DNA from: a virus
Taxonomy: Duplodnaviria > Heunggongvirae > Uroviricota > Caudoviricetes
IMG/VR virus record: IMGVR_UViG_3300042880_000509
Reading direction: 5' to 3' (one strand)
Length of the DNA stretch: 64,000 nucleotides
Each line of letters opens with the position of its first letter. Position 1 is the first letter of the stretch. Positions 1 through 60,534 of the stretch are shown here, in pieces. The notes under the pieces were generated by a model. The model was not told where the DNA came from. It saw only the letters and a list, made by a program, of their open reading frames with translations, and made no database searches. A program made the position numbers and the translations under genes.

Positions 1-2175
1 TTTTTTATCTTCAACAACATCAACCATAAAGTCATAAAAGTTTTCTGGAAATTCAACACCTCTAGTAAAATAATCAATCATTTTTTTAACCCTTTTTTCC
101 AATGTTTTGTTTTTATTGGTCTCTTCAGTTTCTTCTAATATTGTAGATCCTATTATTCCTTTAAAACTATAATTTATCGTAAAATCTTCAACATCAAGTT
201 TAATTTTTTCACATAATTCTTCTGAAAAATCTCTTAATACATCTCTAATTTCAAATTGTATTTCCCACCAGCTTTCTAGTTCTCTAACATAGTTACCAAA
301 TAAATTATATGGAGTATCATCATCAGTCATAATTAATTCAACAGTTCCTTCTTTAATAGAATAAACAAATTCATGAACATACCCATAATTTTTTACCGAC
401 AGTAGTTCAAATTTAAAATTATATCCCCCAGTTCCTCTTTGAATGTCGTTAGTGGAAAAAGTTTTTTTAGTAAGATATTTTGTTAATAACATTTCCGGAG
501 TTTCATTAAGAATCTTACCTAATCTTTCAATACCATTAACTCTTTGTATTGCCCTTATTAAACCCTCGTTATCAATAATTTTTAACATAGTTGATTTTAA
601 AGATGAACTTTTTTCTTCAGATTCATTTAATGGTTCACCACCAAACATTTTAGATTCTTTTTCCCTTCTTTTTTTTACACCAGGAAATCTGCGGAATGAC
701 CTTGAACTTTCTTTTTTGATTTGTTCTTTTGCTTTGTCCAATTCATTTTGTTTTACATATTTAATAAATTGACTCTTTTTGAAATTACCAATACCCATGT
801 TATACATCATTGAAATCATTGCATTATACATGTCTTGATCTATATCTGGTGTAATCCCGTCTTTTTCCCAATCATCAAGGATTTTATTTAATTGTTCCTT
901 TGTTTTATCAAGATCGTCTCTTAAAACTTCCTCTGCTTGTTTTTTTGTTATCTTTGTTTTACCAACAATAACTTTATTATACTTTGGAATGAATGGATAG
1001 TCTCCTCCGGTATTACCCATACTCTTGTCCCTAAAAATTGCATGACCATATCCTATTGTTTTGGCACCATCACCGATATCATATGCTGTTAAAACAGGTT
1101 CACCTCTATTTTCTATTGATCCCTCTTCATTTTTTATGTGCTGGACCAGTTTTTCATCGTAATCTCTGATTCTTTTTTTTGTTTGTATTTCAGGTTTCTT
1201 TTCGGTCTCTCCTTTTTTTTCACTACCTCCACCACCAGGAGCTTTTATTTGTTCCAAGTTTGGTTCTTCTTTTGTTAGATCATCATAGATATTATTCATT
1301 TGTGTTATTGAAAGTATCCCAACAAATGAATAAATAACATATTTTAAAATCTTATGTTTAATATTGTCACTAACATTTTTTATCTTATCAAATAATGTTT
1401 TGATATATGATATTGCTTGGTCTTTTGTTTTAACCCAATCAAGAGATTTATCAACATTCTTTTTAACTTCAAATTCCCATTCAGCGTCCGGTTTTTTTTC
1501 TTCATTAAGTATTCTACATAACTCAACAACTCTATCAAGATATCTTAAACTTTCTTCGTTCATATCTCTTGTATATTTTCTAAACCTACCAGGATTTGCT
1601 TTGATTGCCGACTTTGGGAATCTTGTTCCAACTCCTTGTCTTCTTGCCATTTTTAATGTTCTACCATATTCATCAAGATCCTTTTTCTTTCTACCTTGAC
1701 AATGTGCTTTTTGAGAAAATCCTTTTGGGTTATTACAATCAATTGATCTTTTATATTTTTCGGACCACTTCTCTGTTAATTCTTCATCTTTATGTTCTGG
1801 AAATATAAATTCAGAAAATGAACTTTTAGTTTCGGGTGTGACGTTTTTTGCAAGTTCTTTCCATTCATCACAATCTACACCACCACCCATCCATTCCCAA
1901 ACTTTAATATTGTTAGGTAAAACAGATTCAATCTTTTTTTTAATCCTTGAAAATTCACTATGTGGTGTGTGAAGTGCGGTAAAGATTGGAAAGATCTTAA
2001 CTTCATTAAAGGTTGGGAAGGCAACAATATAAAAACTACAAACTGACTTATTCGGTCTTACATGTTTTAAAATTAATTTTATTTTCCTTACATCTCGTAA
2101 AGATTTTTCATGTTGTTCTTGAGTGTATTCCTTATCCTCACCTTCTTTTAATATTTTATTCAAATAATCAAACAT
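1..2175 (-). CDS. Large (>725 aa, C-terminus beyond window) protein with internal GH24 T4-lysozyme-like domain; likely virion-associated cell-wall degrading protein
   Basis: Minus-strand ATG at 2175, open to the window edge. Translation contains EEGSIENRGEPVLTAYDIGDGAKTIGYGHAIF, matching the T4 lysozyme E..D..T-IG-GH catalytic motif, and MISMMYNMGIGNFKKSQF (GH24 helix). N-terminus MFDYLNKILKEGEDKE resembles the shared leader. A Gly-rich linker GGGGSEKKGETEKK follows. Confidence 0.7.
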   Translation of the reverse strand, partial: MFDYLNKILKEGEDKEYTQEQHEKSLRDVRKIKLILKHVRPNKSVCSFYIVAFPTFNEVKIFPIFTALHTPHSEFSRIKKKIESVLPNNIKVWEWMGGGVDCDEWKELAKNVTPETKSSFSEFIFPEHKDEELTEKWSEKYKRSIDCNNPKGFSQKAHCQGRKKKDLDEYGRTLKMARRQGVGTRFPKSAIKANPGRFRKYTRDMNEESLRYLDRVVELCRILNEEKKPDAEWEFEVKKNVDKSLDWVKTKDQAISYIKTLFDKIKNVSDNIKHKILKYVIYSFVGILSITQMNNIYDDLTKEEPNLEQIKAPGGGGSEKKGETEKKPEIQTKKRIRDYDEKLVQHIKNEEGSIENRGEPVLTAYDIGDGAKTIGYGHAIFRDKSMGNTGGDYPFIPKYNKVIVGKTKITKKQAEEVLRDDLDKTKEQLNKILDDWEKDGITPDIDQDMYNAMISMMYNMGIGNFKKSQFIKYVKQNELDKAKEQIKKESSRSFRRFPGVKKRREKESKMFGGEPLNESEEKSSSLKSTMLKIIDNEGLIRAIQRVNGIERLGKILNETPEMLLTKYLTKKTFSTNDIQRGTGGYNFKFELLSVKNYGYVHEFVYSIKEGTVELIMTDDDTPYNLFGNYVRELESWWEIQFEIRDVLRDFSEELCEKIKLDVEDFTINYSFKGIIGSTILEETEETNKNKTLEKRVKKMIDYFTRGVEFPENFYDFMVDVVEDKK

Positions 2176-3742
2176 TATTTTCAACCTTGTTTCTTAATAT
2201 TTTAATAAATTCGTTTTGGATTTCTTTAACCAAATCAACAAAAGATTTTTTAGGTGTGTCACTTGTTTGGGTTCCAAGTTTTCCTAACTTACTCATTGCA
2301 ACTTCTATTTGTTTGTCAGAAAGATTACCCCACTTTAATAATTTTCCTTTAATATCATTTAAAAAAGTATCATCACCTACATATGTTGCAATTGGTAATA
2401 GTTCTTCTGGAACATCATCTAATTTTGGTTCTTTTTTATTTCTATATAGATAATTAATTCCTGATATATTTGTTATACATTTGTGTCCACCACTATTTGC
2501 TTTTATAACATCTAAACCACTTACAGTTATTTTATCAAGTAATACTCTTTGTTTTTCAGATAGACTTCTGTATAGCTTTTCAGATACATTATCAAGTATT
2601 TCAAGTAATTTACTTCCACCATCAACTTTGAATGATGGTCTGTCGCTATATATTGCCATTAAGTCTTTTAATGTAAAACCAACTGAACTATATTCTGTTT
2701 CTAATTCTGCAATTCTTTTAAGATCACCGAATGTTATTTTTAAATTACTTAATTCGTTTGAAAATTTATCTAAAACCTCATCTTTGATTTCACCTAGATC
2801 AACACCTTTTAATGCTCTTTCTTTTTTAAATGGATTACAAGATGCTTGGACCATACCCATTGGCATACCAGTAACTAAAAAGTCTGCGTCCGGATTGTTT
2901 TTAAATGGTGTATAACGATCATAAGCTCCAGCTTTTGATGTACCACCAAAACCATATTGTGTAATTATATTTCCAAAAGTTTCAACACCTTTTTCTTTTC
3001 TACTTTGAATATAGTTTTCTTTATTTTTTGTCATCTGTTCAGGATTTGCGTATCCTTTTTCAGTCGCCTCTTTTCTAATGTTATTTAGAATACTAAGTAG
3101 TGATGGTTGTGAATTTAATACTAAACTATCTAAAAACCCTGGTTTATTTTTATATGCTAAAAGTAACTTGTTAACAACAAGACCCATCATCATTTTATTT
3201 CTTTTTAAACTCTCATCTTTGTTGTAATTAAACAAGTAATTCATAACCATTTCTGGTGTTATATCGTGTTTAACAAAGTCAGCAGAGTCAACCGTTGAGA
3301 TTAATAGAATATCTTCAGATGGAAATATCTCTTTTGGTGATATAGATTGAGATATTGTTTCTACATTTGACCTTGACTGTTTAAAGTTTGTTGATGTATT
3401 TTTTTCAACACCGGCTTGCGTATCGTGGTGATCTGTATGTATGACAAACATTGGTTTACCGTGAGCAAAATCAACAAGAACTGGCATCACATCACCTGAA
3501 GCGTCTGGTTTTTTAATTGCAAATTCTTTATTACCATATTGTATTAATTCAGCATCAACAACTTTAATTCCGTTTTGTTCCAAATAATTTTTCATAGCAA
3601 TTGCTGTTGTCACACCATCTAAATCCATGTGATAATAGATCTTTGCTTTCTTATATCTTCTAGCAAGATCTTTTATTCCTCTGATTCCACTCTCAAGAAG
3701 TAATGTTTCTTCTTTAAGTATTTTTCTAATAAGTTCTTTCAT
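2168..3742 (-). CDS. DHH-family phosphoesterase (524 aa) with shared N-terminal leader
   Basis: Motifs HMDLDGVTTAIA (DHH motif I), VLVDFAHG (II), HTDHHD (III) and a C-terminal SGGH (IV). N-terminus MKELIRKILKEET is the leader. Confidence 0.65.
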   Translation of the reverse strand: MKELIRKILKEETLLLESGIRGIKDLARRYKKAKIYYHMDLDGVTTAIAMKNYLEQNGIKVVDAELIQYGNKEFAIKKPDASGDVMPVLVDFAHGKPMFVIHTDHHDTQAGVEKNTSTNFKQSRSNVETISQSISPKEIFPSEDILLISTVDSADFVKHDITPEMVMNYLFNYNKDESLKRNKMMMGLVVNKLLLAYKNKPGFLDSLVLNSQPSLLSILNNIRKEATEKGYANPEQMTKNKENYIQSRKEKGVETFGNIITQYGFGGTSKAGAYDRYTPFKNNPDADFLVTGMPMGMVQASCNPFKKERALKGVDLGEIKDEVLDKFSNELSNLKITFGDLKRIAELETEYSSVGFTLKDLMAIYSDRPSFKVDGGSKLLEILDNVSEKLYRSLSEKQRVLLDKITVSGLDVIKANSGGHKCITNISGINYLYRNKKEPKLDDVPEELLPIATYVGDDTFLNDIKGKLLKWGNLSDKQIEVAMSKLGKLGTQTSDTPKKSFVDLVKEIQNEFIKILRNKVENNV

Positions 3743-3793
3743 ATAAATAATAAATATAAATTAATATCAAATTGTCTATGATATTGATATTTT

Positions 3794-4117: not shown

Positions 4118-4510
4118 TTACCAGTTTCTTTCTGTGTTGGTATTAATTTCTTCCTGGACTCTTACTAATGTTTTAATTTTATACTTTTTGAACATTCTTT
4201 CACCGATTGCGTATCCTATGTTATATAAACCAATTGCGTTTGTCCCACTATAATAATACACATTAATCCACACGATAAACCTTGGGTATTTATTACCGTA
4301 AATATCAAATCTTGATTCTTCTTTATTAATATCATTAATTTCAATTTTATCAATTAAGTTTGCAGCTTCACAATCATCAAATCCCAACCAACCAGGAAAA
4401 GTATCAGCATCCGGATCTTCCTCACAAATACTTTTAATTTCATCAAAGGTTGATAGAACTAATCTTTTAATTGTGTTTGAGAATTGACTTTCAGTTATTA
4501 GAAATTTCAT
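4118..4510 (-). CDS. Hypothetical protein with shared leader (MKFLITESQ...)
   Basis: 130 aa ORF. The N-terminal 20 aa match the leader seen on at least 10 other proteins. Confidence 0.6.
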   Translation of the reverse strand: MKFLITESQFSNTIKRLVLSTFDEIKSICEEDPDADTFPGWLGFDDCEAANLIDKIEINDINKEESRFDIYGNKYPRFIVWINVYYYSGTNAIGLYNIGYAIGERMFKKYKIKTLVRVQEEINTNTERNW

Positions 4511-5474: not shown

Positions 5475-6395
5475 CTACATCCTGTCTGAATACATTTCGT
5501 AAAACTTTTCTGGCATTTTTAAATGGTCAAGATTTATAGGTTCTGATTGTCCTTTATTTTCCAATCTTTTTATAAATTCACGGATTCTAGGATAACCGCT
5601 CCAGTTTTGCCATTTTGAAATTATTTTTACATTACTAGGTATTGATTCATACGTTTGTTTTGTTGTTGGGTCAATAAGTCCAACAAAGTCAAAATCATCT
5701 TTAATATGTTTCCAAGCTTGTGTTCCTCCAGCAGAAAAACCACTTACAGATTTTATCTTATAATCATTTATTCCATTTTTAGTTAAAACATTTTTTAAAG
5801 TATCCAATGAATTTTCAAAATTACTATAAACTACATTTCTATCCGAAAAATATTTATCACCACCATTATTTTTCATCCATTTTGCACCATAAGTAGAGCT
5901 AGGATAACCGCCCCAAATAACAGTAATATCATCCGAATCGGGATCGTTCATTTCTATAATATATGTTCCACCATTTATTGTTTTACTTTCTTTTTTTGTT
6001 TCTTGTTTTTTTGGTTCTGATTTTTTATTTTTTTCTTCAGTATCTTTTTCTTCTGTTTTTTTTGAGAGTATTGATTTTAATTTTTCAATATCTTCAGTAT
6101 TCATTGTTCCGGTAACTTCTAGTCCTTCTTCTTCTTGGAATTTTTTTACATTTTTTTCTGTTTCATTTCCGTATTTACCATCAATACCAAATTTACCAAA
6201 ACTATAACCTAATTTATCAAGACCGGCTTGAATTGCAGCAACACCTTTAGTAAATGAGTAATTATTCATTCCTTTTCTATGGATTTCTCCACCGTCAATA
6301 ATTTCATCTAAATCATTTATGTAATCTTCAAATGATTTATTTTCAAGTAATCTTATCAATCTAGAAGTTTGACTTTCAGTTAGTATTATTTTCAT
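5475..6395 (-). CDS. Peptidoglycan-binding domain plus serine hydrolase (alpha/beta, G-F-S-A-G nucleophile elbow) with shared leader
   Basis: PG_binding_1-like GLDKLGYSFGKFGIDGKYGNETEKNVKKFQEEEGLEVTG. Lys/Glu-rich linker. C-terminal domain with GFSAGG (GxSxG). N-terminus MKIILTESQTSRLIRLLE. Confidence 0.65.
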   Translation of the reverse strand: MKIILTESQTSRLIRLLENKSFEDYINDLDEIIDGGEIHRKGMNNYSFTKGVAAIQAGLDKLGYSFGKFGIDGKYGNETEKNVKKFQEEEGLEVTGTMNTEDIEKLKSILSKKTEEKDTEEKNKKSEPKKQETKKESKTINGGTYIIEMNDPDSDDITVIWGGYPSSTYGAKWMKNNGGDKYFSDRNVVYSNFENSLDTLKNVLTKNGINDYKIKSVSGFSAGGTQAWKHIKDDFDFVGLIDPTTKQTYESIPSNVKIISKWQNWSGYPRIREFIKRLENKGQSEPINLDHLKMPEKFYEMYSDRM

Positions 6396-6397
6396 AG

Positions 6398-7936
6398 TTA
6401 TGGTTGCATTATTGTTGAAACATATTCATATGTTTCTTTTGGTAATTTATCTTTAAGGTCTTTAAATGATGTCTTGTTTTTTAATGCGTCAAAATAAACT
6501 TGTTTACCTGACTTTGGTGGGTATTGATACCATGCTCCACTATTATATGCGGCAATAGCAAGATCTAATCTTCCTGGGAATCTTCTAACATTTTCTGACA
6601 TTAGTTTTACATAAGCAGGTAAAGCGTCTTCAACCTTACAAGGATCACCTTTACCATATGAAGGCCAAGTTGTTGGCATAAATTGTGCGATACCTCTTGC
6701 TCCGGCTGTAGATGTATTTTTACAACTTATAACAGATGGTGAAAAAGCAGATTCGGCATATAATTGTCTCATGGCATATTTTATTGGGATTCCACCACTT
6801 TCAACCTCTGATTTAAATTTATTAAAATTAACGCCTTGTATATTTTTAAATTGTTCTTCTAAGTTTGATGGTATACTTCTTATTTTCACACCTGGATTTG
6901 TTATAACAAAAGATGTATTTTCTTCTGAACCACCTGACCCTTTTTTAACATCTTCAATTTGTCTACCAGAATATGTTTTAAATATCTTTTGGGTTAATTT
7001 ATCTTGGGTTTTTAAATCAAAAATTCCACTTTCGTTTAATCCATTATTTTTTTGGAATTTAGTAATTGCAACTTTAGTATTTCCATCAAGAATCCCATTA
7101 ATTTCTATTGAGTTATCTTTTGTTACGATAAACAATATTACTTGCATCATTCTTATTTTTTTGTCAGAACTATTTTGGTCAACAACTTCATTAGTTTTTA
7201 AAAATTCAAAGTATCTTTCAAAAAACTTTTTAAACTTTTCTTTTTTATCGTCATTAGTATTACCAGTTGTTTGGGTTTGGTTTGTCTTTTTTGTTTCTTT
7301 GATATAAGTCTCAACATGATCTTTAATTGTTTTGTGGTTTGATGGTCCTATGTGTATTCCATCTCCTGCCGCCCAATTACCATCACCACTTACCGTTGGT
7401 ATTATAATAGCATTTTTAATTTGTGAAGAAAGATCTTTTTGTAATTGGATCATTCTTTCTCTTCCTTTATACATACAATTTTGATCACAAAGGACTCTAC
7501 CATCTGGATATTTAGTTGGTTTTAAATTCTTATCTGTCATAACAGAACCCGCTTCATATCCTAAAAAAACATAAGCCTGACCACCTTGTTCATTAACAAC
7601 ATCTACCATTTTTTGGATGTTTGTTACGGCATTTGATAAATTGGTTCCTACCCAAAAAGCATCATTTGTTCCGCCGTATATGAATACTTTATCGTATTTT
7701 TTTTCTTTTAGTTTTGGTAACATATTACTCAACATCCAGTCTGTTTTTTTTCCTCCTTCAACAACATGAGTAACATTCCAGTCTGGGTGTGCTTTTGATA
7801 ACAAATAATTCCAGGTTTTTCCTCCGGTACTTAAACTGTCGCCAACAAACATGACATTTTCTTTAACTCTATCGTCATTTTCAGTTATTAAATTAACAAG
7901 AAATTTGAATTGGTTTTCAGAGACAAGTATTTTCAT
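6398..7936 (-). CDS. Three-domain cell-wall enzyme: SGNH/GDSL hydrolase, peptidoglycan-binding domain and SLT lytic transglycosylase, with shared leader
   Basis: FVGDSLS (GDS motif) and GGTND (SGNH block III). PG_binding_1-like VAITKFQKNNGLNESG. C-terminal ES...GARGIAQFMPTTW...AAYNSG (SLT family 1). N-terminus MKILVSENQFKFLVNLITE. Confidence 0.75.
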   Translation of the reverse strand: MKILVSENQFKFLVNLITENDDRVKENVMFVGDSLSTGGKTWNYLLSKAHPDWNVTHVVEGGKKTDWMLSNMLPKLKEKKYDKVFIYGGTNDAFWVGTNLSNAVTNIQKMVDVVNEQGGQAYVFLGYEAGSVMTDKNLKPTKYPDGRVLCDQNCMYKGRERMIQLQKDLSSQIKNAIIIPTVSGDGNWAAGDGIHIGPSNHKTIKDHVETYIKETKKTNQTQTTGNTNDDKKEKFKKFFERYFEFLKTNEVVDQNSSDKKIRMMQVILFIVTKDNSIEINGILDGNTKVAITKFQKNNGLNESGIFDLKTQDKLTQKIFKTYSGRQIEDVKKGSGGSEENTSFVITNPGVKIRSIPSNLEEQFKNIQGVNFNKFKSEVESGGIPIKYAMRQLYAESAFSPSVISCKNTSTAGARGIAQFMPTTWPSYGKGDPCKVEDALPAYVKLMSENVRRFPGRLDLAIAAYNSGAWYQYPPKSGKQVYFDALKNKTSFKDLKDKLPKETYEYVSTIMQP

Positions 7937-7985
7937 TATATTGTGTTATTAACAATAAATACTATAAAAAATATAATGTTAAAGT

Positions 7986-8183
7986 TTAGTGATTCAATTT
8001 TACTTTCCAGAAGTTGAAAAGTTCTTTATTGTTATAGTTATTTTTTTTACTGTCCCAACCACACATGTGGCAAAGGTATGGATGTTGATCTTCTTTTTCT
8101 TTACTCCAAGAATGACCACATTTACATTTGATCTTCTCACCAAAAAGTTTTTCAGCTTGTTTTTCTGTGATTAGAATTTTCAT
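7986..8183 (-). CDS. Small Cys/His-rich protein with shared leader
   Basis: MKILITEKQAEKL leader. CKCGH...CHMCGW suggests a zinc-binding fold. Confidence 0.5.
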   Translation of the reverse strand: MKILITEKQAEKLFGEKIKCKCGHSWSKEKEDQHPYLCHMCGWDSKKNNYNNKELFNFWKVKLNH

Positions 8184-9034
8184 AGGTTGTTAAAATTTCC
8201 TTTTTTGATTTTTTTATCGTCCAAAATAAAACATTTGTTTTCAACATCAATTTTATAACTTTTGTTTGGAAATGAAATATAATCACCGGTTGTAATATCA
8301 ACCAACATAATGTTTTCAACCTTCATACCAAGATAATTCTTTGGTAGTGGTGTGTTTAATATTAATTTTCCATCTTCTTCTGACATACCAGTTAATTCCT
8401 TTACTTGGAAACTCTTTCCGTTAATCTCCAAATCAATTCCGTGATCTCTATCTTGTTTAGATCCTGGAGGAAAATATTTGATATCGTATTTAGAGTTTTT
8501 TAATTTGTCAATAACATATTTTTCAGTGATACTTCCTTTATTGTAGGTATTCATATTAGCCCTAATAAGTTCTTTTAAAATAGGACCTTCATTTAATAAC
8601 CTTTCTTTATTATCAACTAACCATTTATAAAAATCTTTTGGTGTTTCACCTTTCTTTTCTTTTTTGAATATGTTTAGCAATCTATCTTTAACAAATTTGT
8701 GACCACCAAAATAATTTAAAATTGACCAACTTGTTAGTTCGTTAAGTGGATGTATGTCAATAATACCGCGTTTACTTTTATCTTCGTTCCAATCCAAATT
8801 ATCTTTATAAATTTCAAACAATAATTTATTTAAAAATTTAGCAAACCTACTATTATTTTGGATAAATTCAATATTTAAATTTCCTGGGTTGTTATCTTCT
8901 GAATCCACAATATTAATATAACCTTCTAATGATTTATCATTATTATTTTGATTAAAGTCAATTTCCATTTGATTTTCTGTTAGTCCCATCAAACTCAAAT
9001 TTCTTTTTATTTCGTTAATTATTGTTTTTTCCAT
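8180..9034 (-). CDS. Hypothetical protein (284 aa)
   Basis: Long ORF in coding-like sequence. Start overlaps the upstream gene stop (ATGA), suggesting translational coupling with the paralog array. Confidence 0.55.
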   Translation of the reverse strand: MEKTIINEIKRNLSLMGLTENQMEIDFNQNNNDKSLEGYINIVDSEDNNPGNLNIEFIQNNSRFAKFLNKLLFEIYKDNLDWNEDKSKRGIIDIHPLNELTSWSILNYFGGHKFVKDRLLNIFKKEKKGETPKDFYKWLVDNKERLLNEGPILKELIRANMNTYNKGSITEKYVIDKLKNSKYDIKYFPPGSKQDRDHGIDLEINGKSFQVKELTGMSEEDGKLILNTPLPKNYLGMKVENIMLVDITTGDYISFPNKSYKIDVENKCFILDDKKIKKGNFNNL

Positions 9035-12866: not shown

Positions 12867-13559
12867 ATGAAAAACCTTATTAGGAAAATATTAAAAGAAG
12901 AGACATCTGACAGAGCAAAAGAAAAACTTGTAAAGCCATATCTTTCAAAATTTGAAAATGTTGGTTATGTTGAAAACGATGATATACCATATTTTGAATC
13001 TAATAGTTTAAATGAGAATAGTAATCCAGTCAAAAACTTTTGGTTTAAAAAATGGACCAAACAAAAAGAAAAGGGTGAGAATCCATCAATTTATGATATT
13101 GAAAAGTTAGGGTTTTCTAATAAAAGAAATGAGATTGTTCAATACTTTGTAGATTTTATGGGTTACGGTGATGGAAACACAAGATCTAACGCTATTAAAC
13201 AATATCTCTTAAATCATACTTTTACGGAGAAAGAAATTACCGAAATGGATAACTTTGATCAGGGTAAAATTCAAATAAGATTTAATAAAGTTCAATTTTT
13301 AGAAAGTCAAAATAATTACGGTAAAAACTTTTTAGATTTAGATTGCGAATTTGTTGTTTTAAGTGGTTCATTTTATAATAGTGAAGAAGGTGAAACTTAT
13401 AACTTTTCAAGTGACGATAATCCATTTGATGATTTTGTAACATACTTTGAGTTTAAAGAAGAAATAGAACAAGTTGTTGAGAGTTTTGTACATAAAGTTG
13501 TTGAGTTGTTTGGTTTTAATATAAACAATGATTTTGATTATATCAGTGTAAAATGGTAA
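12867..13559 (+). CDS. Hypothetical protein with shared leader (MKNLIRKILKEET)
   Basis: 230 aa. Leader nearly identical to that of the DHH protein. Stop overlaps the next start (TAATG). Confidence 0.6.
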   Translation: MKNLIRKILKEETSDRAKEKLVKPYLSKFENVGYVENDDIPYFESNSLNENSNPVKNFWFKKWTKQKEKGENPSIYDIEKLGFSNKRNEIVQYFVDFMGYGDGNTRSNAIKQYLLNHTFTEKEITEMDNFDQGKIQIRFNKVQFLESQNNYGKNFLDLDCEFVVLSGSFYNSEEGETYNFSSDDNPFDDFVTYFEFKEEIEQVVESFVHKVVELFGFNINNDFDYISVKW

Positions 13560-14134
13560 TGAAAAATTTAATTAAAAAAATATTAAAGGAAGAGGAAGGT
13601 AATAAGGTTGTAAAAAACTATGTTACTAAAATGTTTAAAAAACAAGTTGATTCTGGTTTAACACCACGCATACCATATGAAGATTTACGAAAAAAAAAAC
13701 TTACCCAACATATTGAGCTAATTGATAAATGGTATTTTGAATTTTTGGAAAATCATTATGGTGTTAGTAGTGGTTTTGAAAAAGCTAAAACTTTATATGA
13801 AGAAGCGGTTAAGACTGTTACTGAAAAGGATTTAAAAAGTGTTGACATTGATACTGGCCAAGACAAATTTTTGGTATCAATTCCCTGGATAGAGTTTTAT
13901 GATATAGATTCTGAAAGAAGAAATGTTGTTTTTGGTTTTGCGATAATTGACTGTTATTTAGAAACTGATAATGGAATGAAAACATATGAAGAAATGTTAG
14001 ATAATACGTTTCCAGATTACATGTGGAATGATGTAACTGATATTTTAAGACAACAAATTGAGGAATATGTTCAAATTAGGGGTTACGATTTTGGTCTTGA
14101 TATTCTTGTTTCAGAATCGGTTTGGTCTGATTAA
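13559..14134 (+). CDS. Hypothetical protein with shared leader (MKNLIKKILKEEE)
   Basis: Start taken at the second ATG (13559), overlapping the upstream stop. Followed by a hairpin terminator. Confidence 0.6.
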   Translation: MKNLIKKILKEEEGNKVVKNYVTKMFKKQVDSGLTPRIPYEDLRKKKLTQHIELIDKWYFEFLENHYGVSSGFEKAKTLYEEAVKTVTEKDLKSVDIDTGQDKFLVSIPWIEFYDIDSERRNVVFGFAIIDCYLETDNGMKTYEEMLDNTFPDYMWNDVTDILRQQIEEYVQIRGYDFGLDILVSESVWSD

Positions 14135-14464: not shown

Positions 14465-14833
14465 TTATATTTGATCTGACAACATAAAATTTAAAAATTT
14501 TCTAATTGTTCTCATAAATTTTTGTCTTTCTGGGTTATTAACATTTTCAGGACCAAAAAACCAATCACCAACCATATCAGTTTCTTCAACTAACATTTCA
14601 ACAATTTTATATTCCATTTGTTTTTTACTATTAAAAGTATTAAAACCAAACCCAGGAAATCCATCAAAAGTATATTCGGTAACACTTAAAGGTTCAAAAT
14701 CTCCAAAATCACCACCGAGGTTTCTTTTATTTTTTTGAACTCTTCTAATTAAAAAATTAAATATACTAGAATCAAACTCCTCGTTTTGTGAGGAGTTTGA
14801 ATCATTGTTATTTTCTCTTATTCTATATCTCAT
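14465..14833 (-). CDS. Hypothetical protein (122 aa)
   Basis: ORF with a 4-nt start/stop overlap with the upstream gene. Confidence 0.5.
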   Translation of the reverse strand: MRYRIRENNNDSNSSQNEEFDSSIFNFLIRRVQKNKRNLGGDFGDFEPLSVTEYTFDGFPGFGFNTFNSKKQMEYKIVEMLVEETDMVGDWFFGPENVNNPERQKFMRTIRKFLNFMLSDQI

Positions 14834-21010: not shown

Positions 21011-21835
21011 ATGTTATTAAAAGTAGGATCGAAAGGAGACGATGTAAAAAAACTTCAAGAAAAATTAGGATTAACGGCTGATGGTTCTTTTGGACCTAAA
21101 ACTGAAACGGTGGTAAAAGAATGGCAAACTAAAAACGGATTAACCGCTGATGGTATTGTTGGTGATGGTACTTGGGCTAAAATGTTCGGAACAACTCAAG
21201 TAGTTAAAGAAGATGTTGTGATTACACCAGTTGTAGGACTAAACGTTGAGAAACTAAAAGGTCACATTCCTGATGTTGTTATTGCACAGATAGCGGAAAC
21301 CGCAAAGAAATTTAACATTACAACAAATCTTAGACTTGCTCACTTTTTATCACAATGTGGACATGAGTCAGGAGGATTTAAAGCGGTATCAGAAAATTTA
21401 AACTATTCGGCTGACGGATTAAAAAGAACGTTTGGTAAATACTTTCCTGGTAACTTGGCAGAATCATATGCTAAACAACCAGAAAAGATTGCATCAAGAG
21501 TTTATGCTAACCGTATGAGTAACGGAGATGAAGCGTCAAAAGAGGGTTATAAATTTAGAGGGAGAGGTTATATTCAGTTGACAGGCAAAGGAAACTACAC
21601 AAGTTTTACTAAATTTATTGGTGAAGATTGTGTTGCAAATCCTGATCTTGTTGCTACTAAATACCCATTGGCATCTGCCGCATTTTTCTTTGATTCAAAT
21701 AAACTTTGGTCAATATGTGATAAAGGTGCTGATGATGCTGCGGTAACTGCGGTAACAAAACGAGTAAATGGGGGAACCATAGGACTTGCTGATAGAATCA
21801 AACACTTTAAAGAGTATTATAATTTGTTAAAATAA
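21011..21835 (+). CDS. Endolysin: N-terminal peptidoglycan-binding domain plus GH19 glycoside hydrolase domain
   Basis: PG_binding_1 motif KLQEKLGLTADGSFGPKTETVVKEWQTKNGLTADGIVG. GH19 motifs FLSQCGHESGGF and YKFRGRGYIQLTGKGNY. Start chosen at 21011 (MLLKVGSKGDD). Confidence 0.85.
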   Translation: MLLKVGSKGDDVKKLQEKLGLTADGSFGPKTETVVKEWQTKNGLTADGIVGDGTWAKMFGTTQVVKEDVVITPVVGLNVEKLKGHIPDVVIAQIAETAKKFNITTNLRLAHFLSQCGHESGGFKAVSENLNYSADGLKRTFGKYFPGNLAESYAKQPEKIASRVYANRMSNGDEASKEGYKFRGRGYIQLTGKGNYTSFTKFIGEDCVANPDLVATKYPLASAAFFFDSNKLWSICDKGADDAAVTAVTKRVNGGTIGLADRIKHFKEYYNLLK

Positions 21836-35559: not shown

Positions 35560-35847
35560 TTATTTTTTTACAATAGCTTTTGTGAGCTGGTTTATCAGTC
35601 CTTGGACTTCTCCGAAATTATTGAACCGGATTTGTGGATCGGTATTAAAAACCTCAACATACCAATTGTCTTCTTTTATTTCTTCATTTGTTGGTGTGAT
35701 AAATGTCAACCCATCAACAATATCAAGGGCATAGTAATACGAATCATCTTCATCGTGTTCTTTAATTTCTTCACTTTTAAAACCTAAAAGTATTAATTCT
35801 CTTTCTGTCATATTATTTTGTTTCAACAATGTTATAAGTTCCTTCAA
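35560..35847 (-). CDS. Hypothetical protein (95 aa)
   Basis: ORF. Confidence 0.45.
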   Translation of the reverse strand: MKELITLLKQNNMTERELILLGFKSEEIKEHDEDDSYYYALDIVDGLTFITPTNEEIKEDNWYVEVFNTDPQIRFNNFGEVQGLINQLTKAIVKK

Positions 35848-36076
35848 TTACCCCATAAGATGATTCTTCCTGAAACTGGTATGTTTCAGCAACATCACTA
35901 GAATCCATAGGTCTTGTTAAGTACCAGACTTGAGTTTCTTTCCAAGTCACTGTAACTAACTTTCTTCCTTTAGGTAGGTTGATTGTTCCTTTTCCACCCC
36001 AAGTTTTTACTCTTTCGTTCTCCGTACAAGATGTTATCATAACACCCATTAAAACCGTTAAAAATACTTTTTTCAT
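35813..36076 (-). CDS. Small lipoprotein (lipobox ITSC)
   Basis: MKKVFLTVLMGVMITSCTE is a signal peptide with a lipobox Cys. Confidence 0.55.
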   Translation of the reverse strand: MKKVFLTVLMGVMITSCTENERVKTWGGKGTINLPKGRKLVTVTWKETQVWYLTRPMDSSDVAETYQFQEESSYGVIEGTYNIVETK

Positions 36077-36327
36077 TTTATTAATTTTACTTTTATTATT
36101 TCACCTTTTCTATTTGTCTTATATTTCATTCTAAACGTGTCAACTAATATTGCGTTTTGTTCTTTCAGATACAAACAATTCCATTCACAACTATCATGAT
36201 GGTATAAATGTACATGTATTTCTTTTAATTTACCACACCTCAAATAGGTTATATCTTTGTAATTCCAATTTGAACAACTGGATAATACCAACAATACAAG
36301 TATAAGGATTTTATTTATCATAATCAA
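36073..36327 (-). CDS. Small lipoprotein (lipobox LSSC)
   Basis: MIMINKILILVLLVLSSCSNW. Confidence 0.55.
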   Translation of the reverse strand: MIMINKILILVLLVLSSCSNWNYKDITYLRCGKLKEIHVHLYHHDSCEWNCLYLKEQNAILVDTFRMKYKTNRKGEIIKVKLIK

Positions 36328-36539
36328 TTAGTTTGTTTAATTACGTATGGAGGACTAATTCTTACTTCACTACTATCGCTATTAAAGTAGTATACCGTAT
36401 CACCATCAAAACTAATTGTGTCTGTGTACCAGATTGCTGGATGTGGTCCTTCTTTAGTTTCAACAGTTCCTTCTATCTTATATTTGTATTCAGTCTGAGT
36501 ACAAGAAGTTAAAAATAATAATGCTAATAATTTTTTCAT
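36324..36539 (-). CDS. Small lipoprotein (lipobox LTSC)
   Basis: MKKLLALLFLTSCTQ. Confidence 0.55.
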   Translation of the reverse strand: MKKLLALLFLTSCTQTEYKYKIEGTVETKEGPHPAIWYTDTISFDGDTVYYFNSDSSEVRISPPYVIKQTN

Positions 36540-52165: not shown

Positions 52166-52600
52166 TTATTTTGGTGTGATTCTATATTTGAAGAAGGGTA
52201 TGTTTGTTTTTACTTTTTTTACATCGTGATGATCATTATAATCCATCTTAACCATTTCTTCATAATCAATGGTGTATTTGTTGTCATTATAATTTGATGT
52301 TAATTCATCGCCTTTTTTAATATCTTTGATTGTTTTACCATAAATTTTATTACCAACTTTGGTATTTTTGATATTTGGATCAAAACTATGATTAAGGTAT
52401 CTAACCGGTTCTCCACCAAAATAGGACCCATCTTTGATTATAACATAAAGATATTCAGTATTTTTTTTAATATCTTCTTTAGCAAAAACACCTTTTCCGG
52501 CAATTTTACTTTTTTTTACTTCAATTTTATCATAAAAAGAATTATCTAACTTTTTTTTATTAGTCTCCTCAGTTAAAATTCTTTTTATAATTGATTTCAT
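52166..52600 (-). CDS. SET-domain protein (putative protein-lysine methyltransferase) with shared leader
   Basis: SKIAGKGVFAKEDIKKNTEY (GxG motif), RYLNHSFDPN (NHSxxPN) and GDELTSNY (ELxxxY). N-terminus MKSIIKRILTEET. Confidence 0.65.
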   Translation of the reverse strand: MKSIIKRILTEETNKKKLDNSFYDKIEVKKSKIAGKGVFAKEDIKKNTEYLYVIIKDGSYFGGEPVRYLNHSFDPNIKNTKVGNKIYGKTIKDIKKGDELTSNYNDNKYTIDYEEMVKMDYNDHHDVKKVKTNIPFFKYRITPK

Positions 52601-52611
52601 AATAATAAATA

Positions 52612-53847
52612 TTATGATCTACGAAAATTATATGTGGTTTGAATCGGCCTTTTACCATATCTTTTTTCCATAAGTTTTTGGTGTAGTTCCCAATCTAATA
52701 TAGATTCATTTGTTTGTTCTTTTTCATCTGGGATTAATGAATAAACTTTTGATATTCTTTTAATTAGTTTTGTTGCAACATAATTAAATCTTTCACATTC
52801 ATCTTTAAAAAAGTCCATCTCTCTATCAGCGTATTTTGTAACGTGATTTTTATATTTTTTAAGAACTTTTGATTTATCTTCTGTTGGTTCTTTTCCACCA
52901 AAAAGTTGTGATAAAGGTCCCATTTTTGAAAACATTTGTTCTTCGTGTGACAATACCATATTTTCAAAAAACCCAACTTTAAGACCTGATAAGTTAATAT
53001 AAACCAATTCTAAGACTATTTTTATATTTTCTTCGGGTGAGTTTTCTTTTGGTTTTTCTCCAGCATGTTCAAGTAATTCAAATACTTTATCCATTTGATT
53101 ATATAAACTTTGAATCAAGTATTCAAATGAAAAGTTTTGTATTTTTTTTAATTCTTTAATTGTTTCATCTTTCATTATAAACTCATAAAACTTTTCTTTT
53201 GTTATTCCATTTTGTATCATTCTTGATGCAATCTCTGTCGGCCTAACAACATTTTCTTCGTTCTGAATAAAATAACTATATCTCATAAATTCATTTATAA
53301 CTGGTATTCCAAAATTTAACCTTCCAGATGCGTATGTCTGATAATCGGCGGTATTGCCGGCCAAACCTTTTGACTTTTTAGTTCTTCTAAATCTGTGCAT
53401 TAATTCGTGGGCCATTATAGAAGTATTATGTATTTTTTGTTCTATAAAAACCATATATAAATCACTTGCTTCCCAACCTTCAGGAACTACGAAATGGATG
53501 TGTAAATCTATTGTTGATGTTTCTTTATTTAATTGCATCAATATACCTTCATCAAAATCAAATTCATTTCCAACACCCATAGCGGCAATTACAGGTTCAA
53601 CACCTTCGTAACCCTCTAATTCATCAACTCTAACAATTAAATTTAAATGTGTAAAATTTACATCAGAAACAGTTAAATCAATTTTAATATCCTCAAACAA
53701 ATATTCTTCTTTATCGGTTGAGTTTATTTCCTTTAATTTATCTTTAACAATATTGTATAATACTCTGGCTTCGTTTAGAATATTTTCTGGAACACCTGCA
53801 GCTTCTTTAATTAATTTCAATTGACTTTCTGTTATAATGATTTTCAT
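52612..53847 (-). CDS. Putative zinc metalloprotease (HEXXH) with shared leader
   Basis: SIMAHELMHRF, a single HExxH. N-terminus MKIIITESQLKLIKE. Length 411 aa. Confidence 0.55.
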   Translation of the reverse strand: MKIIITESQLKLIKEAAGVPENILNEARVLYNIVKDKLKEINSTDKEEYLFEDIKIDLTVSDVNFTHLNLIVRVDELEGYEGVEPVIAAMGVGNEFDFDEGILMQLNKETSTIDLHIHFVVPEGWEASDLYMVFIEQKIHNTSIMAHELMHRFRRTKKSKGLAGNTADYQTYASGRLNFGIPVINEFMRYSYFIQNEENVVRPTEIASRMIQNGITKEKFYEFIMKDETIKELKKIQNFSFEYLIQSLYNQMDKVFELLEHAGEKPKENSPEENIKIVLELVYINLSGLKVGFFENMVLSHEEQMFSKMGPLSQLFGGKEPTEDKSKVLKKYKNHVTKYADREMDFFKDECERFNYVATKLIKRISKVYSLIPDEKEQTNESILDWELHQKLMEKRYGKRPIQTTYNFRRS

Positions 53848-53873
53848 AATAATAAATATAATGGAGTTGTGAT

Positions 53874-55992: not shown

Positions 55993-56026
55993 ATTACAAA
56001 ATTAAGAAATAAAGTTTAATAAAACA

Positions 56027-56058: not shown

Positions 56059-56110
56059 GTCGACATTGAATGTCAACTCTCCACCACCTTGTTTTTATAG
56101 AACAAGGAAA

Positions 56111-56401: not shown

Positions 56402-56410
56402 ATTTTAATA

Positions 56411-56453
56411 TAAAACAAAAAATCCCATGAATTATTTTACTAATCTATGGGAT
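56411..56453 (-). terminator. Intrinsic terminator after the Nudix gene (ATCCCAT...ATGGGAT, long loop, T-run)
   Basis: 7-bp stem. Minus-strand TTTTTTGTTTT follows. Confidence 0.45.
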
Positions 56454-56544
56454 TATTTTTTTAGTAACCAACTAATAAATTTGAAAGGGGTGGTTTTTTT
56501 GTTTTGTGTATTATAAATACATCTAAATTTTCAAAAATTCAATT

Positions 56545-56964: not shown

Positions 56965-56974
56965 ATTTATAAAT

Positions 56975-57322: not shown

Positions 57323-57973
57323 TTATTTTATACTCACAGTATTATCTAATATATTTGGGTTTTCAATTAATTTATCCGGAGTTGTTTTAACCATTAAAGC
57401 TGTCCCACTTTTAGATTTAGTTGCCAACTTATTTGTATAATTATCAATCAAATTATCAAATCTTACAATAGAAGTATATGTTCCAGCTTTCAACTTTTCA
57501 TAATGGTTTCCTGTGATTTTATTTAAAAAAGTTAATGAATAATCAGGAACCGATTTTGAAAGTTTTTTATCGGAATACTTAACCCATGTTTTATCATCTT
57601 GTTTAATATTCTTATCCATTTTAGAAATCGCTCCTTTGATTGCCCTTTCAAGAATTTCAATATTTTTGAATTTACACTCAATTTTAATTATGTATTCAGT
57701 ATAATTTTCAGTTATAATAACATTTGAAATTCCCTCTTCTTTTGATAAATGTTCTTTGAATGTTTTAATATTCTCTTTTATTTCAGGAAGTTTCATAACC
57801 TTTTTCCCATCCAAACTATCTAAAGCAAGTATTGATGTTACACTTGTTTTACTTTGACTTAAATTGATTGTGTATTTAAAAACACCACTACCATCAAGGT
57901 TTAATTTTATGTCGTCAATAATTTCAACACAAGAAGTTAAGGTAAAGATTAAAAGTAGATAAAGGTATTTCAT
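57323..57973 (-). CDS. Lipoprotein (216 aa)
   Basis: MKYLYLLLIFTLTSCVE is a signal peptide with a lipobox. Confidence 0.6.
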   Translation of the reverse strand: MKYLYLLLIFTLTSCVEIIDDIKLNLDGSGVFKYTINLSQSKTSVTSILALDSLDGKKVMKLPEIKENIKTFKEHLSKEEGISNVIITENYTEYIIKIECKFKNIEILERAIKGAISKMDKNIKQDDKTWVKYSDKKLSKSVPDYSLTFLNKITGNHYEKLKAGTYTSIVRFDNLIDNYTNKLATKSKSGTALMVKTTPDKLIENPNILDNTVSIK

Positions 57974-58227
57974 TTTTGTTCTAATTGGTTGATGTGATGT
58001 TCCAAATACCAGGCCGCTTTCTTCAAATCTTCCAATTCTTTTTCTTTATTTTTTTTACCAGCTCTTGAGATATATTTTACCGTATTACCTAAAGCAAATC
58101 CTAATTGCCAGGCATCTATCACTTTTATTGCTTCGTAAAGATTTTCTTCACCACCATAATGATTTGGGTGGTTTACCATTTCATTTTCAGAATTATGTTT
58201 CTTGTGTTTTCCCATAGTGCGTTTCAA
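57970..58227 (-). CDS. DUF3310-like small phage protein
   Basis: VNHPNHYGGEENLYEAIKVIDAWQLGFALGNTVKYISRAGKK...LEDLKKAAWYLE matches the DUF3310 signature common in phages. Confidence 0.55.
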   Translation of the reverse strand: MKRTMGKHKKHNSENEMVNHPNHYGGEENLYEAIKVIDAWQLGFALGNTVKYISRAGKKNKEKELEDLKKAAWYLEHHINQLEQK

Positions 58228-58969: not shown

Positions 58970-59007
58970 TTGACATAATAATAATCATTTAATATAACCT
59001 GTAAATA

Positions 59008-60534
59008 TTAATTAGTTCTCATTACAATATAATCATTACCATTTATTCTTATTTCGTCATAACCTCCATCGTAACTATTTAAAACATTACCATAATCAGC
59101 GTCATTAACTAATTGTTCTTTTAACTTTCTGGTGTCAATATAATCTCCAATATCATAACCATAATTTTTTAACCAACGATATGGGTCGTCACCGATCTCA
59201 TCATCTAGATAGTTTTCAACAGCATCATTAATACTATCTTCATCTGGATCACCATCTGGATTATCTTTTATTTCTTGGATTTCATATTCAATGTCTGATA
59301 TTCTACTTTCTTTATCATCTTGTTGGTCACTAGTATCTTCATCATCATATATTTTGTTAGGATCTACTCTCACACCATCTTTATCTAAAACCCAATTACC
59401 ACCTTCATTATAATATTGGAACCCATTATCTTCTTCATCCGTAAAATCAAATACATTGCCATCCTCTTTAGTTTGGTATTTAATTGGAAATCTTACACCG
59501 GTATTTTCAAAGATATATTTTTCCATTTCAAGTAACCAAATTTCTTCTTTTTGACTTCTACTTAATTCTTTATCCACCCCATAGTCTTCAGGAGAATCTC
59601 TAATCCAATCTTCAACAACATGTCTAAATTGGTCTTTAATTTCTTCTTCGTCAATGTAGTAGGAAAGATAATCTTTGGAAAAATAATCCGTTGGTCTTTC
59701 TATAATCTCTTCATAATAATCTTCAACTGATTGATCTGCTTCATCTATTGTTCCAACAGCATATTCTTGACCAGTTGATAAAGATTCAAAAGAAGTCATG
59801 TTATAATGACTACCACTTGGATATAAATCATAAACATCAACTTTATCTGTTAATAATTCTTCCATCTCTTCATTTAAATTATCTATCCTTTCTTCAATTG
59901 CCGACCACTCATCATCATAACTTTCTTCTCCAGCATCAAGATTTTTTTGTTGTTCTTCTAATTCAGTAATTTCAATTTTTATTTCATTAACTCTTTCTTT
60001 TTCTTCATCCTTTAACACTTCAAGGTCACCTTGTTGTTCGGCATATTCAAAAGCAGCATGCGCCTTTTCTCCTTCTTCATCCGTATCATTTAAATTCCAT
60101 TCATCGTCTTCTCTTTTAGAATCCTGCTCTCTTTCCTTAACTTTTTGTCTTCTTGCTTTCATCACACCGTCATATGGTGTTTGGAAATAACTACTATATC
60201 CGGTAATTTCAACATTGTCTAAAGATTTAATGTTAGTATAGCTAATATCAATGTTTCCAATAACTTTAATTGGTCCAAGATCTGTTAAAAATTTTTGATG
60301 TCTAAAAGTTCTTAAATCAAGATTACCAACAATTACTAGTTTTTTTCCTTTAAATCTGGATAATCTAGGAATTGCTTGTGATTTATAATAAACAGCTTTT
60401 AAAAAATCATAATATTGTTGGGGGGTAATTCTTACTTCCTCCAATTCTTCCTCCTTTATTAATCTTTTAATTCTTTTAATTAAAAATGACTCTGTTATTT
60501 TTGATAACTTTTTCATATAATAATAAATACCCAA
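59008..60534 (-). CDS. Large acidic protein (508 aa) with leader-like N-terminus
   Basis: MKKLSKITESFLIKRIKRLIKEEE combines both leader variants. Asp/Glu-rich throughout. Confidence 0.6.
   Translation of the reverse strand: MGIYYYMKKLSKITESFLIKRIKRLIKEEELEEVRITPQQYYDFLKAVYYKSQAIPRLSRFKGKKLVIVGNLDLRTFRHQKFLTDLGPIKVIGNIDISYTNIKSLDNVEITGYSSYFQTPYDGVMKARRQKVKEREQDSKREDDEWNLNDTDEEGEKAHAAFEYAEQQGDLEVLKDEEKERVNEIKIEITELEEQQKNLDAGEESYDDEWSAIEERIDNLNEEMEELLTDKVDVYDLYPSGSHYNMTSFESLSTGQEYAVGTIDEADQSVEDYYEEIIERPTDYFSKDYLSYYIDEEEIKDQFRHVVEDWIRDSPEDYGVDKELSRSQKEEIWLLEMEKYIFENTGVRFPIKYQTKEDGNVFDFTDEEDNGFQYYNEGGNWVLDKDGVRVDPNKIYDDEDTSDQQDDKESRISDIEYEIQEIKDNPDGDPDEDSINDAVENYLDDEIGDDPYRWLKNYGYDIGDYIDTRKLKEQLVNDADYGNVLNSYDGGYDEIRINGNDYIVMRTN

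Follow-up and report, generated by a model that had tools for sequence, protein, structure and literature searches.

The DNA analysed here is a 64-kb stretch (64,000 nucleotides, hereafter the window) of the virus record IMGVR_UViG_3300042880_000509; it is densely coding, phage-like, of 29% GC, and forms part of an 85,435-bp metagenomic contig. A preliminary description had proposed one conserved N-terminal leader on about 11 functionally unrelated window proteins, and had regarded it as a candidate signal for packaging into, or ejection from, the virion. The leader proved to be real, although it is not one sequence: it is a family of four interchangeable classes, two further members had been missed, and 12-13 of the approximately 117 window genes carry a leader. 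The classes follow the patterns MKxΦΦTESQ (class A, commonly MKxΦITESQ; Φ, hydrophobic residue), MKxΦI[KR][KR]ILKEE (class B), ..I.R....MGL.E (class C-like) and ..LLESKLGNVKPLLNE (class D).

Leader-bearing genes of the window

All of the genes previously listed exist and have the N-termini described, with one start corrected: the gene and leader at 59008..60534 stand, but translation most likely begins at the ATG at 60516, as in the 502-aa public gene call. The cargo annotations (GH24, PG_binding_1, SGNH with PG_binding and SLT, SET, HELMH and the DHH/DHHA1 fold) were all upheld. The leader-bearing genes, their adjoining motifs and a leader-less contrast case are given below, with a slash in a sequence marking the end of a leader, or a known or presumed cleavage site, here and throughout.

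1..2175, minus strand: large GH24 lysozyme-domain protein, 790 aa on related contigs, with its C-terminus past the window edge
2143-2175, minus strand: weak class-B leader of the GH24 protein, MFDYLNKILKE
2168..3742, minus strand: DHH/DHHA1-fold phosphoesterase; class-B leader MKELIRKILKEETLLLE/SG (3692-3742)
3746..3756, minus strand: promoter-like motif TATTTATTATT, 3 nt upstream of the DHH-gene ATG
4118..4510, minus strand: 130-aa protein with no assigned function; class-A leader MKFLITESQFSNTIKRLV
5475..6395, minus strand: 306-aa protein with a PG_binding_1 domain; class-A leader MKIILTESQTSRLIRLLE
6398..7936, minus strand: 512-aa SGNH esterase with PG_binding_1 and SLT lytic transglycosylase domains; variant class-A leader MKILVSENQFKFLVNLITE
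7951-7961: GTATTTATTGT motif upstream of the 6398..7936 gene
7986..8183, minus strand: 65-aa zinc-ribbon protein, with orthologues abundant in metagenomes; variant class-A leader MKILITEKQAEKLFGE
8180..9034, minus strand: 284-aa protein; class-C-like leader MEKTIINEIKRNLSLMGLTE; absent from the earlier list
12867..13559, plus strand: 230-aa protein; class-B leader MKNLIRKILKEE, with GTATTTATATTAAT before it
13559..14134, plus strand: 191-aa protein; class-B leader MKNLIKKILKEEE; possible start two codons earlier, at 13553
52166..52600, minus strand: 144-aa SET-domain protein; class-B leader MKSIIKRILTEE; TATTTATTATT at 52601-52611 adjoins the ATG
52612..53847, minus strand: 411-aa HELMH (HExxH) protein; class-A leader MKIIITESQLKLIKE; TATTTATTATT at 53848-53858 adjoins the ATG
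59008..60516, minus strand: 502-aa protein with no assigned function; bipartite A+B leader MKKLSKITESFLIKRIKRLIKEEE; TATTTATTATT at 60519-60529
63699..64000, plus strand: N-terminal part of a protein of approximately 289 aa; class-D leader MNKDRFLQLLESKLGNVKPLLNE; start uncertain (63657, 63675 or 63699); absent from the earlier list
21011..21835, plus strand: leader-less peptidoglycan hydrolase (contrast case), homologue of endolysin gp191 of Flavobacterium phage vB_FspM_immuto (hereafter immuto), E 6e-69

The HExxH protein keeps its leader in orthologues at three other loci (L021, L093 and L120; L numbers denote loci). A PDB sequence search with this protein gave no significant match, and tblastn against cultured phages (411-aa HExxH protein, 353-aa protein, leader-bearing L5-gp82-like protein, locus L035) returned nothing useful.

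Thymidylate synthase, a GIY-YIG protein, methyltransferases, RNA ligase, a clamp-loader-like ATPase, HNH and NUDIX proteins and redoxins of the window are all leader-less. The leader therefore marks a subset of genes and not all of them, in agreement with what had been proposed. The subset includes wall-degrading enzymes: immuto gp191 is annotated as an endolysin and its gene adjoins the holin gene of that phage, and since its leader-less homologue coexists in the window with three leader-bearing peptidoglycan hydrolases, these three appear to be extra enzymes, plausibly virion-borne.

Leaders are not a product of chance

Two regular expressions, for classes A and B, were written post hoc from N-termini already seen. 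Against the six-frame translation of the 64 kb they gave 11 matches, every one at the N-terminus of a called gene. Shuffling residues within proteins yielded a mean of 0.13 matches, of which 0.018 were N-terminal, compared with 10 observed, and mononucleotide shuffles yielded 0.47 six-frame matches compared with 11. The contrast is too large, despite the post hoc expressions, for a chance origin of the window leaders, which is excluded. Compositional chance as a general explanation was likewise rejected by the shuffles, together with the N-terminal enrichment, domain diversity and leader exchange described below. The class-A serine is drawn from two separate codon families (TCN and AGY), bearing out the earlier claim that conservation is at the protein level.

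Distribution in viral and cellular sequences

A wider census was taken by scanning IMG/VR with degenerate DNA patterns. The class-A pattern occurs at at least 120 loci, with up to seven matches within 10 kb; among the matches listed, 158 of approximately 170 have the leader at the start of an open reading frame (ORF) of 50 aa or more, the proteins being 50-518 aa long. Conservation extends to positions outside the pattern, with residue 3 hydrophobic, residue 10 Y/L/F/I, residue 13 L/I/V (93%) and residue 15 often E. Class B was found at more than 120 loci. Class C (MNLQEQISRIQSMMG[VL]I[NS]E), first met on a related contig immediately to the left of the window, was found at 39. Classes A, B and C occur together on the same contigs, for example on a 214-kb contig sampled by L036, L139 and L261. 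Overall, leaders stand on hundreds of unrelated proteins in uncultivated phages, several per locus, on contigs that derive from lake and Baltic samples.

A 5-mer census of 3271 dereplicated genes from leader-centred loci showed how strictly these sequences are confined to protein starts: N-terminal and other occurrences numbered 150 and 8 for ITESQ, 136 and 3 for ILKEE, and 104 and 1 for MNLQE. The same census revealed further types, namely the bipartite MKKI[IV][RK]LTESDLxRIVKRVIxE, C/B hybrids such as MNLQEHIRRVLREE, and class D in the form ..LLES.[LM]GNVKPL[IL]xE. Leader genes make up 552 of 3258 genes (17%) in these loci, a sample biased towards leader genes.

In 596 Gb of bacterial and archaeal genomes, the class-A pattern gave about the number of matches expected by chance, and only approximately 5 of 120 were leader-like, on short phage-like contigs. 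Since cellular genomes give chance-level matches only, the leader is a viral feature, and a host sorting signal was rejected on the same counts. A 44-column leader profile run against a collection of 5.8 billion proteins retrieved only 96 short candidates; most of these were orthologous to the 65-aa zinc-ribbon protein, and the profile was useless for a census of cargo.

Some leader carriers belong to paralogous small-protein families that are alike past the leader and lie in tandem arrays (..LRRR..PC[DE][YF] and ..FKYLDNQDFIQI). A 462-kb phage found by a short DNA match (LR756500) showed no leaders in the 40 kb read. Two huge phages of 635-642 kb, LR745206.1 (L121) and LR756502.1 (72486-114051, L122), have a different leader, M[KR][YH][LI]Kx[FY]xxFE, on approximately 17 of 65 genes in 41 kb; it also ends in Φ-F-E, and their DHH orthologue starts MLRKYGQFINEE. 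As the leader type differs, these genomes do not lend themselves to a genome-wide count of classes A-D. Large phages of the Bacteroidota type may bear N-terminal leaders quite generally.

Leaders end at a conserved Φ-x-E boundary

In every leader class, sequence conservation collapses directly after Φ-x-E. The boundary glutamate is kept in 42 of 43 class A+B leaders (..RVIxE), in 27 of 28 class-B leaders ([KR]E) when loci picked by the class-B pattern are left out, and in 47 of 72 class-C leaders (G[VL]I[NS]E); class D ends in PL[IL]xE, and class A has ITE at residues 5-7, often with a second LΦE at residues 13-15. The preliminary description had pointed out that such [IL]-x-E triplets match the cleavage consensus of the T4 prohead protease, and the boundary is indeed identical in sequence to ITE/A and IAE/A of T4, consistent with a cleavage site. 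Reading the T4 genome directly, we found that IPII and IPIII start MKTYQEFIAE/A, that IPI reads MKTFKEFTSTTTPVSTITE/A (..STITE/A), and that the core proteins gp22, gp24, gp21 and gp67 have short N-terminal segments ending in L/I-x-E. MKTYQEFIAE is the published T4 capsid-targeting sequence (CTS) (PMC8442874), and the prohead proteases of T4, φKZ, 201φ2-1 and SPN3US all cut after Glu (PMC5694885).

The C-terminal tail of T4 gp21 (L286:7449-8087) reads ..PKEITESQTAE.., with the same ITESQ string as class A. This may be its debated C-terminal autocleavage site, or a coincidence.

Leaders are modular and exchanged among orthologues

In leader proteins, Pfam domains begin after approximately residue 16; the leader itself falls within no Pfam family. 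In a set of 122 diverse class-A proteins, approximately 80% are without annotation and the rest have unrelated domains. Those recognised are mostly peptidoglycan-acting (lysozyme 4, LysM 2, M23 2, PG_binding 2, Hydrolase_2 and GH19), and other cargo includes L5-gp82-like proteins and DHH. ADP-ribosyltransferase-like cargo is apparent, being recognised by the YHG[ST] sequence motif only.

The exchange of leaders is best seen in the DHH-like family, which has approximately 4000 homologues. The 119 close homologues compared, with 64-100% identity in the body, begin with a class B, A or A+B leader, or with just MKRLIKE. Leader length varies from 7 to 25 residues, and the junction to the body, ΦΦxE/SGIR, retains an invariant E/SG throughout; the predicted mature N-terminus of the DHH protein would be SGIRGIK... 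When 30 homologues are aligned, no residue before G19 is invariant except M1 and E17. AlphaFold2 predicts a helix at residues 2-11 of the DHH protein, a low-confidence linker at residues 8-18 that contains the E17-S18 site, and the fold proper from approximately residue 23; this fold matches the DHH/DHHA1 family (RecJ, the pGpG phosphodiesterase PggH, pAp phosphatase and GdpP). Some DHH-like members have a C-terminal SET or GNAT acetyltransferase domain (P0190, P0209, P0235-P0239, P0189, P0211 and P0246). That DHH is fused to SET or GNAT in these members while the SET gene of the window (52166-52600) stands alone, with a leader of its own, suggests effector enzymes built from modules.

The leaders are amphipathic with helical periodicity, and a stretch resembling a membrane span is absent from all 595 leader proteins examined. 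Sec, Tat and lipoprotein signal peptides were rejected as explanations: E, S, Q, K and R occur throughout the leaders, with no long hydrophobic stretch, and the true lipoprotein signals of the window (e.g. 35813-36539) are unlike them.

Relatives encode T4-like head machinery

Searching the leader loci with T4 proteins (phmmer) identified tail sheath at 20 loci, tube at 8, large terminase at 3 and portal at 2; a regular expression for the gp21 catalytic motif had no match in the local gene set. A head module was reached by walking downstream from L270, which has three class-C genes, to L407, which has an exact 40-nt stretch in common with L270 and an A+B-like leader gene of its own. The L407 module follows the T4 order: portal, two small proteins, a gp21-family protease, a scaffold-like protein and a gp23-like capsid protein. 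The protease (L407:8651-9367, minus strand) is 34% identical to T4 gp21 and retains the catalytic motifs ELNHP and GVSSRGVGS, and the scaffold-like protein is acidic (514 aa). In the capsid protein, the stretch NIAQLYENQASYLINE/AAS (..SYLINE/AAS) is presumed to be a maturation site like KIAQAFGSFLTE/AEIGG (..SFLTE) of T4, assigned by eye because BLAST did not align that stretch.

The closest cultured relatives of the L407 capsid protein are those of Microcystis phage Mel-JY01, immuto and Rhodothermus phage RM378. Immuto (NC_055915, host Flavobacterium sp. LMO8) has nine genes in common with the window, with E-values down to 1e-74, and its head module has the same order (terminase, portal, protease, scaffold, capsid). 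It also carries N-terminal motifs related to the leaders: MKKSQLRxIIKEEL, MKKQILSEQFRRMQKLAGIITESQ and M.NFDLKKFLVENKLT. Its proteins of this kind are gp072, gp071, gp080, gp094, gp095 and the 'FLVENKLT' proteins. Two of its proteins with leader-related N-termini, gp072 and gp071, are encoded between portal and protease, the position of the T4 core proteins gp67 and gp68, and gp071 starts MRTLQEKY..HFIAE/A, like the T4 CTS. No such leaders were seen in the 41 kb around the head module of Mel-JY01, so the leader system is not universal in the clade.

Free-standing ORFs of 137-147 aa resembling a fragment of gp23 lie at L134 (3099-3512, minus strand), directly after a class-B leader gene, and at L183 (near 4556, plus strand). 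They match T4 gp23 residues 244-311 only, with E-values of 1e-8 to 1e-10.

Likely affiliation of the window phage

Of the phages sequenced so far, only Flavobacterium phages are related to the window at the nucleotide level, and only through methyltransferase genes. PHROGs and Pfam scans found no structural genes in the window, no gp21-family protease was found on its contig or flanks, and several candidate head-region proteins of L138 and L006 stayed without annotation. The genes shared with immuto point to a fragment of a Flavobacterium-type, T4-related phage. The hosts of the leader-carrying, T4-related and mostly uncultivated myophages are probably Bacteroidota, which for the window phage is supported by Bacteroidota-type lipoprotein signal peptides on several of its small proteins:

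35813-36539 and 57323-57973, minus strand: small proteins with signal peptides such as MKKLLALLFLTSC

Upstream motif and codon usage

The motif TATTTATTATT has four exact copies in the window, and all four adjoin the ATG of leader genes. Over all loci, 44% of leader genes have TATTTAT in the 30 nt before the start, compared with 18% of others (odds ratio 3.5, p 3e-36). In many accessory as well as leader genes, ATATTTAT stands 4-6 nt from the ATG. The related question of what the motif does is informed by structural genes: ATATTTAT precedes sheath (15 of 20) and tube genes, and also the terminase, portal, sheath and tube genes of immuto and the protease and scaffold genes of L407, where it usually lies 20-35 nt upstream (range 13-35 nt), and it is conserved from immuto to Mel-JY01. 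Because it precedes structural genes too, ATATTTAT probably serves this far-T4 clade as its late promoter, the counterpart of the T4 late promoter motif TATAAATA. Many leader genes would then be late genes with almost no 5' untranslated region, and late synthesis of enzymes useful only on a fresh host is as expected for packaged proteins.

Codon usage differs between classes. The class-A serine is encoded by TCA (0.55), TCT (0.21) and AGT (0.19). Class-C codons are near-uniform across contigs and include rare ones (Asn AAC 0.75, Leu CTA 0.80, Ile ATA 0.95, Gly GGG 0.50), and this fixation points to nucleotide-level constraint or recent horizontal spread of a cassette.

Comparison with known systems

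Literature searches on 'ITESQ' and on packaging or targeting peptides found no description of these leaders, nor any account of their families, classes, scale or distribution, in line with the earlier statement that the leader does not come from a described system. The principle has precedent: in T-even phages it is established that cargo proteins of diverse kinds can have nothing but a capsid-targeting sequence in common (PMC3012670). Like the CTS of T4 IPI, IPII, IPIII and Alt, which is cleaved by gp21, the leaders are extreme N-terminal peptides of 10-20 residues on unrelated proteins. Both end in (L/I)-x-E followed by a small residue, to which IAE/A and ITE/A of T4 and the leader ends ITE/S, LKE/E, VI.E/S, GVINE/S and LL.E/SG may be likened. 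Leader-bearing relatives encode a gp21-family protease, portal, scaffold and gp23-like capsid protein; hypervariable small-protein arrays and enzymes that modify the host are among the tagged genes, whose expression is apparently late. In contrast to the T4 system, classes A-D have no detectable homology to MKTYQEFIAE beyond a general resemblance (the exception being MRTLQE..HFIAEA of immuto gp071), there are at least four interchangeable leader classes compared with one in T4, the leaders are often longer (12-24 aa), possibly with two Φ-x-E boxes, and tens of tagged genes per genome are expected compared with about five.

In the giant phages φKZ, 201φ2-1 and SPN3US, 8-19 head-internal proteins are cut after Glu by a gp21-related protease, and their propeptides are thought to target proteins to the prohead, with cargo that includes enzymes ejected into the host (PMC5694885). 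These propeptides, however, are mostly 80-270 residues long and have no shared recognisable motif. The sites of the giant-phage protease family S80 are S/A/G-x-E or A-x-E, with a small P3 residue, whereas P3 of the leaders is hydrophobic, as in T4. By analogy only, the leaders may also be likened to the peptides that route enzymes into the protein shells of microcompartments (PduP, PduD, EutC) and encapsulins, which likewise combine a short, transferable amphipathic helix with a flexible linker on unrelated enzymes; encapsulin shells have the HK97 capsid fold (PMC8346489). Unlike the proposed propeptides, these peptides are cellular and are not removed by a protease, and those of encapsulins are usually C-terminal.

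Proposed function and competing explanations

We give slightly better than even chances to the reading that the leaders are T4-type capsid-targeting propeptides, greatly expanded in T4-related, mostly uncultivated myophages. The short amphipathic helix at the N-terminus, of any of the interchangeable classes (A, B, A+B, C or D), would dock the new protein on the prohead scaffolding core. A gp21-family prohead protease would then cut after the leader-terminal Φ-x-E, in the flexible linker, and the mature cargo would stay in the head and enter the host with the DNA. We infer docking, cleavage, packaging and ejection alike from sequence features. The cargo would comprise peptidoglycan hydrolases, the DHH phosphoesterase, SET, HExxH and ADP-ribosyltransferase-like proteins and many small proteins without assigned function, made late from genes of which many lie directly behind ATATTTAT.

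The packaging or ejection signal proposed at the outset thus agrees, as a candidate, with the computational prerequisites that were tested, but several observations weigh against it. The contig of the window has no recognisable head genes (none in the window or in the flanks L128, L130 and L131), such that the T4-likeness of its phage rests on the genes shared with immuto and on leader families common to T4-like contigs, and a literature search on immuto and Mel-JY01 found no virion proteome. The scale of tagging is large, at approximately 10% of window genes compared with a handful in T4. Class-A cargo includes one sigma-70 factor and one primase-like domain, both of cytoplasmic type, and a gene for an HAD-like enzyme between the sheath and tube genes is also leader-bearing. 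The mature parts of leader proteins are on average more acidic than other proteins, whereas T4 internal proteins are basic. As [ILV]xE occupies 1.9% of proteome positions and occurs within residues 3-25 of 42% of non-leader genes, its mere presence is weak evidence, and only the invariance of the boundary counts. Lastly, the spacing from TATTTAT to the ATG of leader genes peaks at 4-6 nt, and classes B and C show strong codon preference (Leu CTA 0.80 compared with 0.09 in the background, Ile ATA 0.95), such that part of their conservation may be at the nucleotide level or reflect recent spread.

The codon fixation and the 4-6 nt spacing keep alive a quite different explanation, in which ATATTTAT, the AUG and approximately 15 A-rich codons form a reusable start cassette, spread by recombination, for initiation on leaderless or Shine-Dalgarno-less mRNAs in Bacteroidota hosts, the peptide being largely a by-product. 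That spacing, seen in most motif-bearing leader genes, implies near-leaderless transcripts; leader codons are biased to A-ending, class C being fixed as AAC CTA CAA GAA .. ATA; the leader is always at codon 1; and a second lineage has a different, equally conserved upstream context of its own (AACGAATTTAGAGGNNTATA-ATG). We consider such a cassette unlikely, given that the amino acids are kept despite synonymous changes and TCN/AGY serine switches, and that neither the amphipathic helical periodicity nor the sharp Φ-x-E boundary is explained by it, any more than DHH leaders that range over 7-25 residues around an invariant E/SG. Leaders also stand on genes that lack the promoter motif (56% of leader genes have no TATTTAT in the 30 nt before the start), on genes coupled in translation and downstream of Shine-Dalgarno-like sites. 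Still less credible, indeed highly improbable, is the absence of any common function, with the N-termini being remnants of an expanded paralogous family or of AT-rich, Lys/Ile/Glu-rich composition. Part of the set does consist of paralogous small-protein families in tandem arrays and the genome is of 29% GC, yet leaders stand on unrelated Pfam domains, are swapped among close orthologues, are 20-100 times commoner at N-termini than elsewhere, and outnumber composition-preserving shuffles by 10 to 0.02.

The leaders might instead be docking tags for an assembly other than the capsid, be it a replication or assembly compartment, a condensate, the tail lumen, the membrane periphery or a phage chaperone. 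This is a doubtful reading with several points in its favour: the leaders are short amphipathic helices on flexible linkers, which we take to resemble the encapsulation peptides of PduP, PduD and EutC; the sigma factor, nucleotide kinases and the tail-module HAD-like enzyme make sense inside the cell; relatives encode DnaJ and GroEL/GroES; and many tagged proteins suit a compartment better than a capsid. On the other side, no shell, compartment or import machinery was identified, and microcompartment shell genes were not seen in the window scans, which included no systematic search for them. A tag of this kind also leaves four things unexplained: the Φ-x-E boundary, its identity with gp21 sites, the late promoter-like motif in common with structural genes, and the location of the immuto gp072 and gp071 genes between those for portal and protease.

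The capsid-targeting reading can be taken further, into territory that we regard as speculative and rather improbable. In this extended form, the leaders would be a phage-specific, sequence-readable sorting code by which large aquatic phages route at least 10% of their proteome into the virion. The code would cover classes A, B, A+B, C and D as well as lineage types such as MKYLKxFE in the 640-kb phages. Along with its DNA, each particle would bring in dozens of enzymes, among them sigma factors, ADP-ribosyltransferase-like and nucleotide-degrading enzymes, methyltransferases and wall hydrolases. Different leader classes might correspond to different virion locations or to an order of ejection.

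Were the leaders packaging signals, the injected protein set of an uncultivated phage could be read from its genome, and hundreds of candidate host-takeover or anti-defence effectors, mostly proteins without assigned function, would be nominated in abundant freshwater and marine Bacteroidota phages. The T4 capsid-targeting principle, known from a few internal proteins, would be seen to extend to a large and diversified system, the Φ-x-E boundary would serve as a simple marker for the mature N-termini of virion proteins, and new tags would be at hand for loading foreign proteins into capsids. Since immuto is cultured and carries related leaders, the question is directly testable.

Further observations in the window and its relatives

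The window segment 9034-12437 (minus strand) holds five tandem paralogues of approximately 225 aa with a weak DUF6878 match. They have an N-terminus of their own, MK[KQ][KR][FL]K[ML]L..[AS][YF][LF][KR], distinct from the leaders, and GTATTTAT stands before the first gene of the array. The protein at 14465-14833 (minus strand) has a motif (..FNFLIRR..) in common with a class-B-bearing L220 protein (MKHLIKKILKEETEDFDKSVFNFLIRRAK..), with the leader replaced by an unrelated Asn/Ser-rich N-terminus.

The HAD-like gene ('YAFDWDDN') between tail sheath and tail tube was located at L006:7074-7952, L012:7800-8756, L141:8489-9349 and L121:1921-2976, and its lineage-specific leader differs in each lineage. 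A full-length DnaJ, with J domain, zinc-finger region and C-terminal domain, is encoded at L131:6349-7281 (minus strand) on a related contig right of the window, and immuto has genes for GroES and GroEL (NC_055915 40295-42237).

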